Source of the DNA: an uncultured Selenomonadaceae bacterium
GTDB taxonomy: Bacteria; Bacillota; Negativicutes; Selenomonadales; Selenomonadaceae
Assembly (NCBI GenBank): GCA_902778455.1
Contig: CACYXR010000017.1
Span: 60,794 to 124,793, forward strand
Reading direction: 5' to 3'
Length of the DNA: 64,000 nt
Shown here: piece by piece, positions 53,708 to 60,632 of the stretch
How the letters are laid out: each line of letters opens with the position of its first letter
How positions within the stretch are numbered: the stretch's first letter is position 1
The notes under the pieces: model-generated
Database searches by the model: none
Seen by the model: only the letters and a program-made list of their open reading frames with translations
What the model was told of the DNA's origin: nothing
Made by a program: the position numbers and the translations under genes

Positions 53708-55672
53708 TTACACCTTGAACTTGCCGGTAGCCGCTTGCAGCTCCGTAGCGAGATCCGCCAGCGAATGGGACGCCGACGCGATCTCCTGGCTCGACGCCGA
53801 CTGCTCCTCGGCTGCCGCCGAAATGGTCTGCGTTTCCTCGCTGGTCGAACGGCTGACCTCGTCGATGGTGTCCATAGCGCCCACGATGCCCTGCATGCCT
53901 TTCGACACCGTCTGCACCGCATGGTTGATTTCTTCCATTTCCGTCTTGATGGAAGAAACCCGCGTCGTGATATCCTGGAACTGCTCGCCGACTTCGCGGA
54001 TGGCCTGGGTGCCGAGAGCCACCTCATTGGTACCCGCTTCCATCGCAACGACCGCTTCCTCTGTGTCGCCCTGGATGACCGCGATGCGGTTCTTGATTTC
54101 CTCCGCCGACTGCTGCGACTGCTCGGCGAGTTTTCTGACTTCCTCGGCGACGACCGAGAAGCCGCGTCCCGCTTCGCCCGCGCGCGCCGCCTCGATGGCC
54201 GCGTTCAGCGCCAAAAGATTCGTCTGATCGGCAATCGCCGAAATGCTTTCAACAATCTGCCCGATCTGCTTCGAGTTTTCGCCAAGCTTCTTGACAACCT
54301 GCGCCGAATTGGAAACGCTCTGCTCGATGCCGCCCATTTTTTCCATCGCGTTCTGCATCAGCTCCGCGCCGTGATCTGCGGCGCCCGCCATCTGCTCGGT
54401 GTTCTCGGTGACCGTATTCGCCTTATCCGTCATCGCGTTGATGTCGATGAAGGCCGCGTCAATATGCTGCTTCGCGCCGTCCACGCTGTTGAGCTGCTTC
54501 TCCATGCCGCCGGAAACTTCGATGATCGTCTGCGCGACGTGGGTGGCCGCCTCCGCCGCCTGCTGGCTCGAAGCCGTCAGCTCTTCGCTGGACGCCGCCA
54601 CCTGCTCCGCCGTGTGCGCCATCTGCTGGATCAGACCGCGGATATTCTTCATCATCGTGTTGAACTGTCCGGACATCTGCCCGAACTCGTCGCTGGAAGT
54701 GACCGGCAGCGGATCAAGCCGCAGATTTCCCTGGGACATCTCGCCCATGTGATCCACGAGGCCCTTGATCTGGTTCACGATCGCATTGGCGAAGAACAGC
54801 AGCGAAACGACGATCAGCACGACGCCGACAATCGTCAGCACGCTGTAAATCATGCGAAGCTTGGAAACCCCGGCGAACACGAAATCCTCGGGAACGCCGA
54901 CCACCGTCATCCAACCGGTCGCCGGCATCGTCTCATAGGCAATAACCGTTCCATTCGCTACAAAATAACCGGCCTTTTTTTGAGCCATTTCAGCGATGTG
55001 CTGCTTCAACACCGGATTATCATCAATCGACTTCAGATTTTCGTTCTCATCAGCAGAGGCAATGATAAGACCAGTTTCCGGGTTCAGGATCATGCCCTTG
55101 CCCTGGCCGTCGAACTTGATGTTCTTCGCTTTCTGGGAAATGGTGTCGATCTTGAACATGACGCCGATCACGCCGCCCGATGCGCCCTGCCGTTTGTACG
55201 GAACGCCCGCCGCGCAGACCGTATCGCCCGTGGTCTTCGAGACATACGGATCGCTGAACGCAAGCTTGCCCGCCTGTTGCGCTTTCAGATACCATGCCCG
55301 TTTCGTCCACTCAGCCTTGCCCGTCTGATCGCCGCCATGGAGCGCCATCGTATAGCCGTTTTCCATGACGTGCAGCAGATTCGTCATTTCCTTGTCGTCG
55401 GCGACAGCCTGCGTCAGGTTCTGGCTCCGCGCGTACGCTTCCTCCGACGCCGGCAGATGAGCGACAATCGAAGCGACGCCCTGCGCGAGCTGCCCCTTGG
55501 AAAGCAGCCACGCCTCCGCCTCATTGGATTCCGCCTTGATCGTCGAAACGATTTCCTTTTCCAGCGTCTCCGACACGGCGGACGACGCTGTGAAATAACC
55601 GACAACCGAAACAATCGCCATAATCAGACCGGCCACGCCCGACAGCGCGAAAAACTTTTGCTTCACATTCAT
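53708..55672 (-). CDS. methyl-accepting chemotaxis protein (dCache-type sensor, HAMP, MA domain)
   Basis: 654 aa. Signalling hairpin ...[40 protein letters not shown]. Confidence 0.92.
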
Positions 55673-55853
55673 AATACCCCGCTCCTTTCCTTTATGGGGA
55701 AAACCTTATCCAAAATTTATTATCTCATCCGATTGGTCATTTGTCAAGAACATTATTATTTTTATATGACCATTTACCCATACTGTAGTTTGTGCAAAGC
55801 AACAAAAAACGGCGTCCGAAAACGCAATGTCATTAAGTTAAGAAGTATAGGAC

Positions 55854-55894
55854 AAAAAAGTCCTCCCCTTATTTATTATGGTAAGCGGAGGACT
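55854..55894 (-). terminator. rho-independent terminator of the peptide gene
   Basis: Minus-strand reading: AGTCCTCC-loop-GGAGGACT followed by TTTTTT. Confidence 0.75.
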
Positions 55895-55957
55895 TTCAAT
55901 TTCGACATTTACCCATATAAATTGAAATTTGACATACTTACATATAATTAGGACAAT

Positions 55958-56206
55958 TTACCCTACATTTATATAACTAGGACAAGCTTTCCCATAATTT
56001 TCGCATATATTATAGCCGCCTGCAACCTTTTCCAGCGCTTCTTCTTCCAACTCAAAATCGTCTATCTCGGCCAAATAGGCTTCAGCCTCCTCTTTTGTCA
56101 CTTCCAAACCTTCCGATTTGGCTAAAGCCATCAGTTCTTCAGCAGTACGACATTGCATGGCTTTTGCAAGCATTTCTTTCGTGATTTCGTTTTTGTTAAT
56201 CGACAT
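55958..56206 (-). CDS. Nif11-like leader, double-glycine type RiPP/bacteriocin precursor peptide
   Basis: 82 aa. SD GGGAGGA. Leader ...TAEELMALAKSEGLEVTKEEAEAYL...LEKVAGG, then core YNICENYGKACPSYINVG. Confidence 0.65.
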   Translation of the reverse strand: MSINKNEITKEMLAKAMQCRTAEELMALAKSEGLEVTKEEAEAYLAEIDDFELEEEALEKVAGGYNICENYGKACPSYINVG

Positions 56207-56350
56207 AGTAGAATCCTCCCTTAACTGTTAATATTTAAATGCCTTTAACTATATATACAAAACAGGTTCATCAAAATTGACGCTGCCGGAAAAATTTTTT
56301 TAAAAAATATCATACTCGCCTTCGCAAAGCAAAACTGAAATTGCCGTACG

Positions 56351-56382
56351 AAATAAAACAGCCGTGGAAATTCCACGACTGT
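56351..56382 (-). terminator. rho-independent terminator of the upstream MCP gene
   Basis: Minus-strand reading: ACAGTCGTGG-AATTT-CCACGGCTGT followed by TTTTATTT. Confidence 0.7.
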
Positions 56383-56448
56383 TAGAATTTTGCTTAACTT
56401 AATGACATTGTCCGAAAACGCCGCCTTTTTGCTTGCCTTAAATACGGT

Positions 56449-58176
56449 TTACCGGACTTTGAACGCGCTTGTCGAGGTTTGCAGCTCCATCGCAAGATCC
56501 GCCAGCGAATGGGACGCCGAAGCGATTTCCTCGCTGGACGCCGACTGCTCCTCCGCCGCGGCGGAAATCGTCTGGGTTTCCTCGCTTGTATCGCGGCTGA
56601 CCTCATCGATGACGTCCATCGCCTCGATAATGCCCTGCATCCCTTTCGAGACGGTCTGCACCGCGCCGTTGATTTCCTTCATATCTGTCTCGATGGACGC
56701 GACTCGTGCCGTGATGTCCTTGAACTGCTCGCCGACTTCACGAATGGCCTGCGTGCCGAGAGCCACCTCATTGGTGCCCGCTTCCATCGCGACAACCGCT
56801 TCCTCAGTGTCGCCCTGGATCACGGAAATACGGCTCTTGATTTCCTCCGCCGACAGTTGAGACTGCTCGGCGAGCTTGCGGACTTCTTCCGCAACGACAG
56901 AGAAACCGCGTCCCGCTTCGCCCGCGCGCGCTGCCTCAATGGCCGCGTTCAGCGCCAAGAGGTTCGTCTGATCGGCGATGGCCGAGATACTCTCGACAAT
57001 CTGCCCGATCTGCTTCGAGTTCTCGCCCAACTTCCTGACAACCTGCGCGGAGTTGGCCACGCTCTGCTCGATGCCGTTCATCTTGTCCATCGCATTGTGC
57101 ATCAGCTGCGCGCCGTGGTCGGCAGCCCGCGCCATCTGCTCGGTATTCTCCGAAACCTGCCCGGCTTTCTTCGTCATGGCTTCCATGTCGATAAACGCTT
57201 TATCCACATGCTGTTTCGCACTGTCGACGCTGGTCAGCTGCTTGTCCATGCCGCCCGCAACCTCGACGATAGTCTGAGCCACATGGGTCGCCGCTTCCGC
57301 CGCCTGCTGGCTCGAAGCCGTCAGCTCCTCGGAACTGGCCGCCACCTGCTCCGCGCCGTGGGAAATCTTCTCGATTAATGTCCTGACGGCGTCCACCATA
57401 CGGTTGTTGCAATGACCGAGCTCGGTCAGCTCGTTGTCGCCCTCCAGCTCCACTTTGTGCGTCAGATCGCCTTTCGCCATCATCTCGGATACGCGGGTCA
57501 GCTCTTCCAATGCCAACTCAATGGAGTTGATCAGGAGATACGCAGAAACAAGTGTAATGATCAGCGCCGCGATGGCCACACCCATGGCCATCTTCTCCGA
57601 CTGACCGATATGATCCTCGATGCGCGTGGTGGCCTTTTCCACCGTCTCATCGTTGATCTTCAGCATCTTTTGCGCCTGCTCGTTGACCTTGAGGAACGAC
57701 TGGCGGTCCGGCCCCATGTAGCTCTGCTTCGCTTGCTCCACTTGGCCGCTCTTGACCTGTTTCAGCATCTTGTCCTGCTTCGTGTGGTAATCGGCCCAAA
57801 GTGCTTTCAGCTCCGCGAGATCTTTCTCGTCCCGCTGCCTGGCTTCCTCGCGCAGGTACTGCCGTGCCTGCAGCTCTTTGGTGTACTCCTCGAACAGCTT
57901 GTCAATCTCGGCCTGTTTCTCGTCGACCTGCTTCATGCGCTCGTCGACGGTCTCCGGCCGGATCAGTGCCATCGCCGCGTAACGCCGGGAATCCGCGGCG
58001 TCCATCGCCCATTTATTCATCTGGCGCATCATCGGCAGCCGTTCATTGGCCATGTTGTCCACTTCGTCGTACACATTGTTCAGCGTGTACATCGAAAAGC
58101 CCACATACCCCAAAAACAAAACGACGACGAGACCGAATCCCAGAAACAGTCTCGCCTTGATGGATAAATTGTTCAT
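56449..58176 (-). CDS. methyl-accepting chemotaxis protein (4-helix-bundle sensor, HAMP, MA domain)
   Basis: ATG at 58176 preceded by GGGAGGAA. Same conserved signalling hairpin as the other two MCPs. Confidence 0.92.
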
Positions 58177-58442
58177 ACATATTTCCTCCCTGTCTTCCGC
58201 CAACGCCTATGAAACCCGGGACACGCCGCCCATCGTTCTCGACGCCGCTTCGTCAGCAGAGAAAATTTTATAGGATAATAATATCATTATTGCTCCCGAA
58301 CGTAAACAATTATTTTCAGACTATTTTCATACTTATCCTCTTCCATTTCTGCGTTCAGGCGAATTGACAAAAGCAGCGGGCGAAAAAAAATCAGCCGCCG
58401 AAAGGGAACGCTCCCCCCGGCGGCTGATGATCATTTCACGCC

Positions 58443-60413
58443 TCAGATTCTGAATTTCCCGATGGCCGTCTGCAGATCGGTGGCCAGCGTTGCCAGCGAC
58501 TGGGACGCCGACGCGATTTCCTGGCTGGACGCCGACTGTTCTTCCGCCGCCGCCGAGATCGTCTGCGTATGCTCAGCTGTCTTGCGGCTGACGCTGTCGA
58601 TGTCGTCCACCGCCAAGACGATATTCTGCGTGTTCTTGGAAACCTTGTCCACGGAGCCGCTGATGCCCTGCATTTTCGCCTCGATGTTCGTGACCATGCT
58701 CATGATCTCGGAGAACTGCTCGCCCACCTCACGGATGGCCTGCGCGCCCTGCTGGACCTCGTTCGTGCCGCTTTCCATGGAAACGACGGCGTCCGCCGTG
58801 TCGCCCTGGATCACGGAAATACGCTGCTTGATTTCCTCCGCCGACTGCTGGGACTGCTCGGCCAGCTTGCGAACCTCCTCGGCGACAACGGAGAACCCGC
58901 GGCCCGCCTCGCCAGCGCGCGCCGCCTCGATGGCCGCGTTCAGCGCGAGAAGGTTCGTCTGGTCGGCAATCGCCGAAATGCTTTCGACAATCTGCCCGAT
59001 CTGCTTGGAATTCTCGCCCAGCTTTTTGACCACATCGGCGGAACTCATGACGCTGGACTCGATCTGCTCCATGCGGTGCATCGCGTCCTGCATCAGCGTC
59101 GAGCCGTGCTCAGCGGCTTCCTTCGTGCGCTCCGAATCTTCCGCGGCTTCCTTCGCCTGCTCGGTCATGTTCTGGATGTCGATAAACGCGGCATCCACGT
59201 TCTGCTTCGCCTGATCGATATTCGTGAGCTGCTTGTCCATGCCGCTCGCGACCTCGACGACAGTCTCCGCGACATTCGTTGCCGCCTGTGCCGCTTGATG
59301 GGCGCCCGCCGTCAGTTCCTCGGAGGAGGAAGCCACCTGCTCCGACGTGCTGCTCATCTGGCCAATCAGCGATTTCAGATTCTTCTGCATCTCATTGAAC
59401 GCGCCGGTCAGCGAGCCGATCTCATCGGAGGACTCCACCGGGATCGGCGGCATGCGCAGGTTGCCCGCCGCCATTTCTTTCGCGTCCTTTTCCAGCTCGA
59501 TGATCGGGCCGGTGATGCGGCTCGCGAATTGCAGGCAGAGAAACGTGACGAGAACCAGCCCCGCGACCACCGCGATCGTATAAGTGTAACGCATACGGAT
59601 CAGGGACGCGTAGACGAAATCATACGGCACCGCGAGGCCGATGATCCAGCCCGTGGACGGGATCGTGCGGTACGCGAAGACGTTCGTGCCGTCCTTCGAC
59701 TCATAAGTGAAAAAGCCCTTCTTGTTCTGCACCATCTGGTCGAAGCGCGCGCCGATGTCCGGGATCGACTTGAAATCCGACATCTGCTGATGGTCGCCGC
59801 CGGAGGCCAGTATCTTGCCCGTAGGCTCGATGATGATGCCGATGCCCTGTTTCTGGTACTTGATTTTCTTCGCCTGCTCCGTCACCACGTCGAGGCCGAC
59901 GTCCGTGCAGAGCGCGCCGCCGAAAGCACCGTTCACTTTGAAGGGCGCCGCCGCCGAAACGACCAGCTTGTTCGTGTTCTTGTCCACATACGCCTCGGTG
60001 AAAATCGCCTTGCCCGCCGCCTTCGTGTCCTTGTACCAAGGACGCGTGCGCGGATCCATGCGGCCCGTGCCGTCGCCGGTATGCAGCGACGCGAAATAGC
60101 CGTCCTCCATGCCGATATTGAGATCCAGAATTTCCTTGTCGTCCGCCACCGACGACAGCGACTCGATGGACTTGAGCCGCGCCATGTCGCCCTTGAAGCC
60201 CGTCATCAGGCTCGCCGCGTAAGTCGCCGACGCCTTCTTCTCGCGCAGCCAGCCTTCCAGTTCCTCGGCCTCCGCGCGCACCGTGTAGTTGATTTCCCCC
60301 TCGATGCTCGCGTTGAGGTTCGTGCTTGCCGTGTAGTAGCCGATGATGGAAACGATTGCCAGGAGCAGCCCCACCACGCCGGAAAGAACGAAAAACTTTT
60401 GCTTGATGCCCAT
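58443..60413 (-). CDS. methyl-accepting chemotaxis protein (dCache-type sensor, HAMP, MA domain)
   Basis: ATG at 60413 ([12 protein letters not shown]...) preceded by AAGGGGGA. Paralog of 53708-55672. Confidence 0.92.
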
Positions 60414-60632
60414 AATACCATATCCCCCTTTGAAATGATATGACATTATGCCTATACCAGCGCACAATATCCAATTGTAAGAATTATACCGTACATAAAA
60501 GAGAATATCAATATGAATTTTTATCCTAATTATTTATCTAGGAATTATGCCCCACAAAAAATATAGGCAAAAAAATGGGCGCTCTTCAAAAATCCGCGCC
60601 TTTTTTCATGCTATTTTCATGTTATGTTCGTT

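Follow-up and report, generated by a model that had tools for sequence, protein, structure and literature searches.

Precursors of ribosomally synthesized and posttranslationally modified peptides (RiPPs) with Nif11-type leaders, including the prochlorosins, reportedly combine a conserved leader with varied cores and lie scattered far from a single maturase. The first description of the insertion sequence (IS) IS1675 is said to have been of a composite transposon in which it flanks the lacticin 481 lantibiotic operon, and the target of another IS, IS231A, is reportedly GGG(N)5CCC. In the Bacillus cereus group, MIC231 mobile insertion cassettes are known, in which IS231 ends surround passenger genes (Chen et al. 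1999 and De Palmenaer et al. 2004, as summarized in PMC2266710). Here, we describe an element in a 64,000-nucleotide stretch of contig CACYXR010000017.1 from an uncultured Selenomonadaceae bacterium (the window). It is 586 bp long (positions 55825-56410), lies between two chemoreceptor (methyl-accepting chemotaxis protein [MCP]) genes, and carries the gene for an 82-amino-acid (aa) peptide precursor. With a probability of roughly 0.72, we consider it to be a non-autonomous mobile insertion cassette of the IS1675 group (IS4 family) that carries a self-contained Nif11-type RiPP precursor unit and is moved and matured in trans.

Cassette ends and insertion site

The GC content of the element is 35.7%, compared with 58 to 59% in the flanking MCP genes, in agreement with the AT-rich segment described in an earlier reading of the letters of the window (the original prediction). 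The perfect 17-bp inverted repeat reported there (55826-55842 and 56393-56409) was confirmed and extends to 18 nucleotides (nt), CAATGTCATTAAGTTAAG, at 55825-55842 (plus strand, the 3' side relative to the cargo gene) and 56393-56410 (minus strand, the 5' side). No further copy of this repeat was found in the window with up to three mismatches allowed, and none of 100 shuffled sequences gave two hits. A 10-nt block (GTCCGAAAAC) had been read as inverted between the arms; it is instead part of a direct repeat, GTCCGAAAACGC, that touches the outsides of both arms (55814-55825 and 56410-56421) and is therefore the signature of a target-site duplication. When the 18-nt arms (5'-CA...) are taken as the ends, the duplication is TCCGAAAACG, an exact 10-bp direct repeat that adjoins the terminal repeats at 55815-55824 on the left and at 56411-56420 on the right.

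The 18-nt repeat is identical at 18 of 18 positions to both ends of an annotated IS1675-family element of Lactococcus lactis pB26A (L136, 407-424 and 1993-2010), which is flanked by a 10-bp duplication, GAGTATACCC. A search for further repeat arms had been proposed in the original prediction. The exact 18-mer was found in 54 IMG/VR contigs, compared with approximately 2 estimated by chance. When GTDB genomes were scanned with an alignment of the peptide, 78 loci were returned, and in 11 of them the terminal repeat adjoins precursor genes, with different flanks each time. Some IMG/VR copies form inverted pairs approximately 1.6 kb apart around one long open reading frame (ORF) (L099, L098, L086, L104, and L134), and others form pairs 210 bp apart that lack an ORF and are miniature inverted-repeat transposable elements (MITEs) (L090, L109, L114, and L121, the last with a tandem pair). 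The 435-aa ORF of L099 encodes an IS4-family DDE transposase (NF033592, 164 bits against a cutoff of 115; PF01609 DDE_Tnp_1, 8e-30). It is a single ORF in an element with 5'-CA ends, and its motif YHLRWEIETSFRELK fits the Y-2-R-3-E-6-K (YREK) signature of the IS4 family (PMC2266710), in which duplications are typically about 10 bp long (PMC2266710, Table 1). The closest named plasmid relative of this transposase is IS1675 of Lactococcus lactis (41.6% identity). When the ends were compared with published consensuses, they fully fit those of IS4 and IS4Sa and fit that of IS231 save for the third base. The 10 genera most frequently found in a tblastn search of plasmids with the L099 transposase include Enterococcus, Lactococcus, and Streptomyces and do not include Bacillus. 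In a transposase profile search, upward of 4,700 relatives were recovered; the small number listed with an organism name were all from Paenibacillus, with no tie to Selenomonadaceae. As a side observation, many of the IMG/VR viral contigs (L082 to L135) have an IS1675-type terminal repeat 55 to 130 nt from a contig end, a pattern suggesting that the assemblies broke at IS copies.

The terminal repeats, the duplication, the foreign GC content, and the presence of the same ends at other sites bear out the suggestion of a small inserted cargo cassette. Judged by its sequence, the element is a mobile insertion cassette, with IS ends, a duplication of about 10 bp, a passenger gene, and copies of its kind at multiple sites. 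It encodes no transposase; besides the 82-aa precursor, the only ORF within it is one of 43 aa that overlaps the 5' module. We propose that the cassette is a MITE with a passenger gene, which would keep only the 18-nt repeats that a DDE transposase recognizes and would be mobilized in trans by a transposase encoded elsewhere.

When the element is deleted together with one of the two duplicated blocks, the sequence AAAAAACGGCG-TCCGAAAA-CGCCGCCTTTTT is restored. It forms a bidirectional intrinsic terminator hairpin (-17 kcal/mol in a 56-nt context) between the MCP genes, and the insertion point lies in its loop. The terminator that was split belongs to the upstream chemoreceptor gene (56449-58203, minus strand; 4HB_MCP sensor and MCPsignal domains), and the downstream chemoreceptor gene (53708-55672, minus strand; dCache) has a promoter-like site of its own that lies beyond the cassette (55747-55719). 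The predicted empty allele carries AAAAAACGGCGTCCGAAAACGCCGCCTTTTT and is 596 bp shorter than the occupied site. The sequence thus shows a cut-and-paste insertion into the terminator loop, in which the 10 bp of TCCGAAAACG were duplicated. Perfect or near-perfect duplications of 9 to 10 bp were recognized at 10 independent elements, which comprise cassettes (including that in the window), ISs, and 210-bp MITEs. Seven of the 10 rebuilt empty sites have the form of an A-tract/GC-stem/loop/T-tract hairpin with the duplication centered on the loop, and in folding stability the rebuilt sites exceed 56-nt windows taken at random from these loci (Mann-Whitney P = 0.004). The element family thus inserts mostly in intergenic terminators. 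Because the family mostly targets such hairpins, the position between chemoreceptor genes is incidental, a by-product of the preference of the transposase.

The same insertion, with identical ends and an identical duplication, is present in three more assemblies (L001 to L003), and its orientation is constant in all four. This bears on the possibility that the repeats are serine-invertase sites that flip a promoter segment as a phase-variation switch. The inverted repeats do surround a promoter-containing segment, and a small serine recombinase (resolvase) gene adjoins cassettes in two unrelated contigs (L018, 8258-8830, minus strand; L138, 9112-9831, plus strand; the proteins are 67% identical). 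However, inversion does not explain 10-bp direct duplications, the repeats are exact IS1675 ends, the four independent assemblies share one orientation, and the window contains no recombinase, so that we regard such a switch as extremely improbable. Both the inverton and a pseudogene reading were rejected, given the target-site duplication, the unchanging orientation, and the purifying selection described below. In L001 and L002, the cassette and its upstream flank are approximately 99% identical to those in the window, whereas the 500 bp downstream are only 92.6% identical; this difference suggests strain-level recombination at the cassette boundary.

The 78 precursor loci come from rumen Selenomonadales, Acidaminococcaceae, Succiniclasticum, Schwartzia, Spirochaetia, and Lachnospiraceae, and whole-cassette DNA is 87 to 93% identical between separate insertion sites. 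The cassettes share a 5' module, consisting of the terminal repeat, a promoter (TTGCTC-17-TATAAT in most copies), and a leader region of approximately 100 nt, and a 3' module, consisting of a terminator and the terminal repeat. Intact cassettes were found between purH and a 205-aa ORF in L006 (duplication CCTTTGACGG) and, with a different core, in a Lachnospiraceae metagenome-assembled genome (MAG) (L042; duplication TGGTTGGTTC). Other cassettes carry arrays, with five precursors in L018 (9843-11711) and two in L031 (9217-10044). Decay was also observed: the site of L006 recurs in L139 to L146 with mutated terminal repeats, and the copies in L004, L078, and L007 have lost one end, with the ORF disrupted in L078. 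A phage search for the peptide gave one distant leader only, without a terminal repeat.

Precursor unit, maturation, and export

The cargo of the cassette would constitute a self-contained expression unit on the minus strand, with an inward terminator as insulation against the upstream gene, followed by a promoter, a ribosome-binding site, the 82-aa precursor, and an exit terminator. The inward-facing entry terminator lies just inside the 5' repeat (56383-56357, within a span of 56347-56383, minus strand; 12-bp stem; -19.1 kcal/mol, z = -6.0) and would block read-through out of the upstream MCP gene. It is an insert common to the cassettes in the window, L006, L004, and L139 to L146 and is an extra feature of the subfamily to which the window cassette belongs. 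The putative promoter (56304-56332, minus strand) consists of a -35 element, TTGCTT (56332-56327), a 17-nt spacer, and an extended -10 element, TG-n-TATTTT (56312-56304). It was assigned by homology to TTGCTC-17-TATAAT, the site that other cassettes have in this 5' module, and was not called by a consensus promoter scan. The translation of the ORF (55958-56206, minus strand; 82 aa) matches exactly the residues quoted in the original prediction, and the strong Shine-Dalgarno sequence claimed for it, GGGAGGA, was read from the sequence at 56220-56214 (minus strand), 7 nt 5' of the ATG. Its proposed own terminator corresponds to an exit intrinsic terminator at 55849-55896 (minus strand), with arms at 55857-55871 and 55882-55896 followed by U6. 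This hairpin (-21.8 kcal/mol, z = -4.2) was matched in stability by none of 200 shuffled sequences and is kept in the 3' module of other cassettes. The stretch from the stop codon to the terminator (55897-55957, minus strand) is a conserved noncoding part of the 3' module and includes a 29-nt tandem repeat. This repeat (55926-55983) overlaps a promoter-like site, TTGACA-17-GACAAT (55929-55957, plus strand), which is antisense into the peptide ORF and is conserved in the 3' module of cassettes with the YN core. An Rfam search of the cassette gave nothing beyond one match at E = 0.96.

The product would be an acidic, helical leader of 64 residues (56015-56206, minus strand) that ends in a double-glycine site, VAGG, followed by an 18-aa core, YNICENYGKACPSYINVG (55958-56014 with the stop codon, minus strand). 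The only meaningful family match of the peptide is to TIGR03798 (E = 1.8e-7; 31.3 bits against a cutoff of 32.3), and the end of that model (position 68 of 68) aligns to the GG at residue 64, directly before the core; the Pfam model Nif11 (PF07862) gave 21.8 bits against a cutoff of 23.8. TIGR03798 was also the best or only match for all 10 sibling precursors (21 to 40 bits), two of which pass the cutoff at 33.6 and 39.9 bits. The assignment as a Nif11-type double-glycine precursor therefore held, and, as far as profile scores can tell, the family is a divergent Nif11-leader branch that straddles the TIGR03798 cutoff. The gene had also been called an orphan, which is true of its surroundings in that no machinery lies nearby but not of its sequence, because the peptide has more than 700 homologues, most of them 82 aa long among the best 120 listed.

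The core, YNxCENYGxACPxYxNVG, is conserved more strongly than the leader and is near-invariant in more than 100 variants. In comparisons across Negativicutes, Spirochaetia, and Lachnospiraceae, nonsynonymous divergence (pN) in the core was 0 to 0.07 (0.09 in one close pair) with saturated synonymous divergence (pS), whereas nonsynonymous divergence in the leader was 0.2 to 0.28. These values argue for strong purifying selection on the predicted mature peptide. Both core cysteines (C-x6-C) are invariant. The sole serine varies to glycine or asparagine, and a lanthionine is therefore unlikely. Without modification, the 18-mer has a monoisotopic mass of 2006.887 Da, which each cross-link would be expected to lower by 2 Da.

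As stated in the original prediction, the 64 kb hold no maturation or export genes, to the extent that they were searched: three proteins of a related cluster (its radical-SAM enzyme, its peptidase-ABC exporter [PCAT], and its second ABC protein) gave no tblastn match in the window. Among 10 large ORFs scanned, 9 encode housekeeping or signaling proteins (Tex, DctM, histidine kinase, GGDEF/EAL, CTP synthase, ArgRS, and amidohydrolase), and the 10th is the upstream MCP. With this machinery missing from the window, the precursor is most likely matured and exported in trans. A full cluster is present in a cultured Lachnospiraceae bacterium, AC3007 (L012), in which the same core, YNICENYGQACPSYINVG, is found among sibling precursors directly upstream of the maturase gene. 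This cluster encodes a 552-aa protein, a radical-SAM/SPASM enzyme of 510 aa (L012, 10542-12074), a HlyD-like fragment, and two ABC proteins. One of these is a peptidase-ABC exporter that scores above the TIGR03796 cutoff (878.6 bits against 853.3; Peptidase_C39, 4e-35), and the second is TIGR03797-like (670 bits, under the cutoff of 709). The best NCBIfam matches of the maturase are thioether-forming maturases of Cys-rich peptides, namely, CefB, TIGR04463, Clo7bot, and PapB. Radical-SAM homologues with 45 to 58% identity adjoin related precursors in approximately 20 loci, including those of Selenomonadaceae and Schwartzia sp. (L029). When neighboring ORFs were clustered, the groups returned were limited to the radical-SAM enzyme, the ABC proteins, the 552-aa protein, and an AlsD-like ORF; no lanthipeptide synthetase (LanM), YcaO, or other recurrent enzyme was found beside cassettes in this way. 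The 552-aa protein (L012, 7949-9607; also L026, L036, L047, L056, L062, L067, and L075) is a conserved member of radical-SAM/exporter clusters with a Cys-rich C terminus, and it had no Pfam or NCBIfam match.

By analogy to the AC3007 cluster, a radical-SAM/SPASM maturase encoded elsewhere in the genome would recognize the leader and cross-link the core, probably through Cys thioether bridges. An NHLP/Nif11-type C39-peptidase ABC exporter would then cut after the GG and secrete the 18-mer as a bacteriocin or signal. Alternatively, the peptide could be an unmodified double-glycine (class II-like) bacteriocin or pheromone, cut at the GG by any C39-peptidase exporter and closed by a C-x6-C disulfide. 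The GG site and acidic leader, the invariant cysteines beside a replaceable serine, the lack of a modifying enzyme nearby, and a weak likeness to Bacteriocin_IIc (PF10439) at the GG region would all fit such a peptide. However, this last match is below significance (E = 0.19; 12.2 bits against a cutoff of 27.1), the leader family consistently adjoins a radical-SAM maturase, and the identical core lies within the AC3007 radical-SAM/SPASM cluster, directly upstream of the maturase. We therefore think it quite unlikely that the peptide is exported unmodified.

Several results weigh against a cassette that is moved and matured in trans. An empty site was not found: a search of metagenome contigs with the exact 24-mer of the rebuilt site gave one match, in unrelated coding sequence, and relatives with approximately 90% identical MCP orthologues show different upstream genes and neither an empty nor an occupied site. 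An IS1675-like transposase was not found by tblastn in the window or in 81 rumen genome loci, so that the trans-acting partner in this lineage is hypothetical. The leader scores 1 bit below the TIGR03798 cutoff, and the AC3007 maturase passes no curated cutoff for radical-SAM RiPP enzymes (at best, 163 bits against 600 for CefB). Finally, a radical-SAM gene was found near the captured precursor in 0 of 9 assemblies with terminal-repeat cassettes, compared with 14 of 28 without them (hypergeometric P of approximately 0.007), although this sample was captured by two peptide patterns only and comes from incomplete MAGs, so that the difference is biased and is a lead rather than a result. On the basis of this co-occurrence pattern, the host may lack the maturase.

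If so, the precursor could be a selfish passenger in a Schwartzia-like host without maturase and exporter, unmatured or unused and persisting by transposition and horizontal transfer. The absence of machinery in 64 kb, the 0/9 count, and the decaying copies (one end lost in L004 and L078, a disrupted ORF in L078, and mutated repeats in L139 to L146) are all consistent with such a passenger. In contrast, strong purifying selection acts on the ORF, above all on its core, even in fixed copies with decayed ends (the L006 and L139 types), which argues that the peptide is used. In addition, the radical-SAM enzyme exists in the genus (L029), and the comparison of 0/9 with 14/28 draws on a biased sample. 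Thus, we find a mere passenger unlikely and favor a precursor that is matured in trans.

Chemoreceptor genes and other neighbors

Three tandem chemoreceptor paralogues (53708-55672, 56449-58203, and 58443-60467, all on the minus strand) share 76 to 83% nucleotide identity over the 3' part encoding the signaling domain, and their sensor domains differ, with dCache in the first and 4HB in the second. The region upstream of the first paralogue (53708-55672) is not syntenic in relatives with approximately 90% identity. At the loci of the approximately 90% identical MCP orthologues, the downstream murA and PMT genes are kept, and GGDEF or peptide-ABC genes lie upstream. By the NCBI names of these orthologues, the window appears to be in or near Schwartzia. 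A 12-mer, CATTTACCCATA, occurs both in the conserved 3' module of the cassette (55906-55917) and outside it (55771-55782), just upstream of the promoter of the downstream MCP gene. The outside copy is also present, with one mismatch, in L001 and L002 and may be a coincidence, an operator common to both places, or the remnant of an earlier insertion.

Two further gene types were observed near precursors at other loci. A 244-aa ORF, alpha-acetolactate decarboxylase-like by eye, adjoins Nif11-type precursors in seven loci (L005 [1906-2640], L008, L019, L023, L026, L035, and L048); in L005, it has a precursor on either side and is located downstream of a terminal repeat. In L018, the two cassette ends enclose a toxin-antitoxin-like gene pair.

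Comparison with described systems

The original prediction did not include the identity of the arms as IS1675 ends, the duplication, or the conserved rumen peptide family with its full cluster. Our literature search turned up no report of MITEs or mobile insertion cassettes that carry RiPP precursors and none of IS4 elements that target terminators. Genome mining for RiPPs assumes that precursors adjoin their enzymes, whereas here precursors ride on their own transposable vehicle, and cassette mobility explains some "orphan" precursors. The occurrence of the same core both in a full cluster and on cassettes provides a concrete, testable mechanism for the spread and diversification of precursor repertoires in the rumen, and it suggests that precursor genes can spread among rumen bacteria apart from their maturing enzymes. 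An IS4-family group that mostly hits terminator hairpins, with cassettes that bring replacement terminators, would represent a low-damage insertion strategy. The 18-residue peptide, conserved across three phyla, is a candidate rumen bacteriocin or signal. More tentatively, we speculate that IS1675-type cassettes could act as shuttles of RiPP precursor modules between phyla, independent of the cluster and feeding a resident promiscuous radical-SAM maturase and exporter, with YNxCENYGxACPxYxNVG as a shared interspecies signal or toxin. We hold this possible but doubtful; if true, each cassette would be a plug-in unit that settles without harm in intergenic terminators, and a resident maturase and exporter would gain new products by transposition. 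In a stronger version of this speculation, the cassette-bearing genomes may truly be without the maturase, with the precursor working by novel means.

With respect to peptide biology, the closest parallels are the prochlorosins and the Nif11 family, which have in common with this system a Nif11-like leader with GG, many dispersed precursors, and NHLP/Nif11-type peptidase-ABC export (TIGR03796 in the AC3007 cluster). Unlike for the prochlorosins, the maturase is a radical-SAM/SPASM enzyme rather than LanM, the core in the window is conserved above its leader, and there is an identifiable vehicle, with transposon ends and a duplication. The AC3007 maturase resembles the maturases of Cys-rich RiPPs (CefB, TIGR04463, Clo7bot, and the ranthipeptide maturase PapB) in its N-terminal extension before CxxxCxxC, its SPASM domain, and its Cys-containing cores, but it scores far under the cutoffs of these families and represents a distinct subfamily.

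With respect to the vehicle, the element shares identical 18-nt repeats and a 10-bp duplication with IS1675. IS1675 is a 1.6-kb autonomous element with its own transposase, whereas the window element is 586 bp long and has none. It also differs from the association of IS1675 with lacticin 481, in which a whole operon lies between two IS copies, in that a single precursor lies inside one pair of ends. The resemblance to MIC231 extends to a non-autonomous structure, repeats of the IS4 family, a duplication of about 10 bp, a passenger gene in place of the transposase, presumed trans-mobilization by a cognate IS, and a preference for GC-rich palindromic or hairpin-like targets. Unlike in MIC231, the ends of the window cassette come from the IS1675 group, and the hosts are rumen Negativicutes and Lachnospiraceae. 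The cargo also sets the window-type cassettes apart from MIC231, being either a complete promoter-precursor-terminator unit or as many as five RiPP precursors in an array, and so does the inward insulating terminator. Therefore, compared with the systems described so far, the IS group that lends the ends, the complete precursor expression unit or array as cargo, and the built-in insulating terminator appear to be new.

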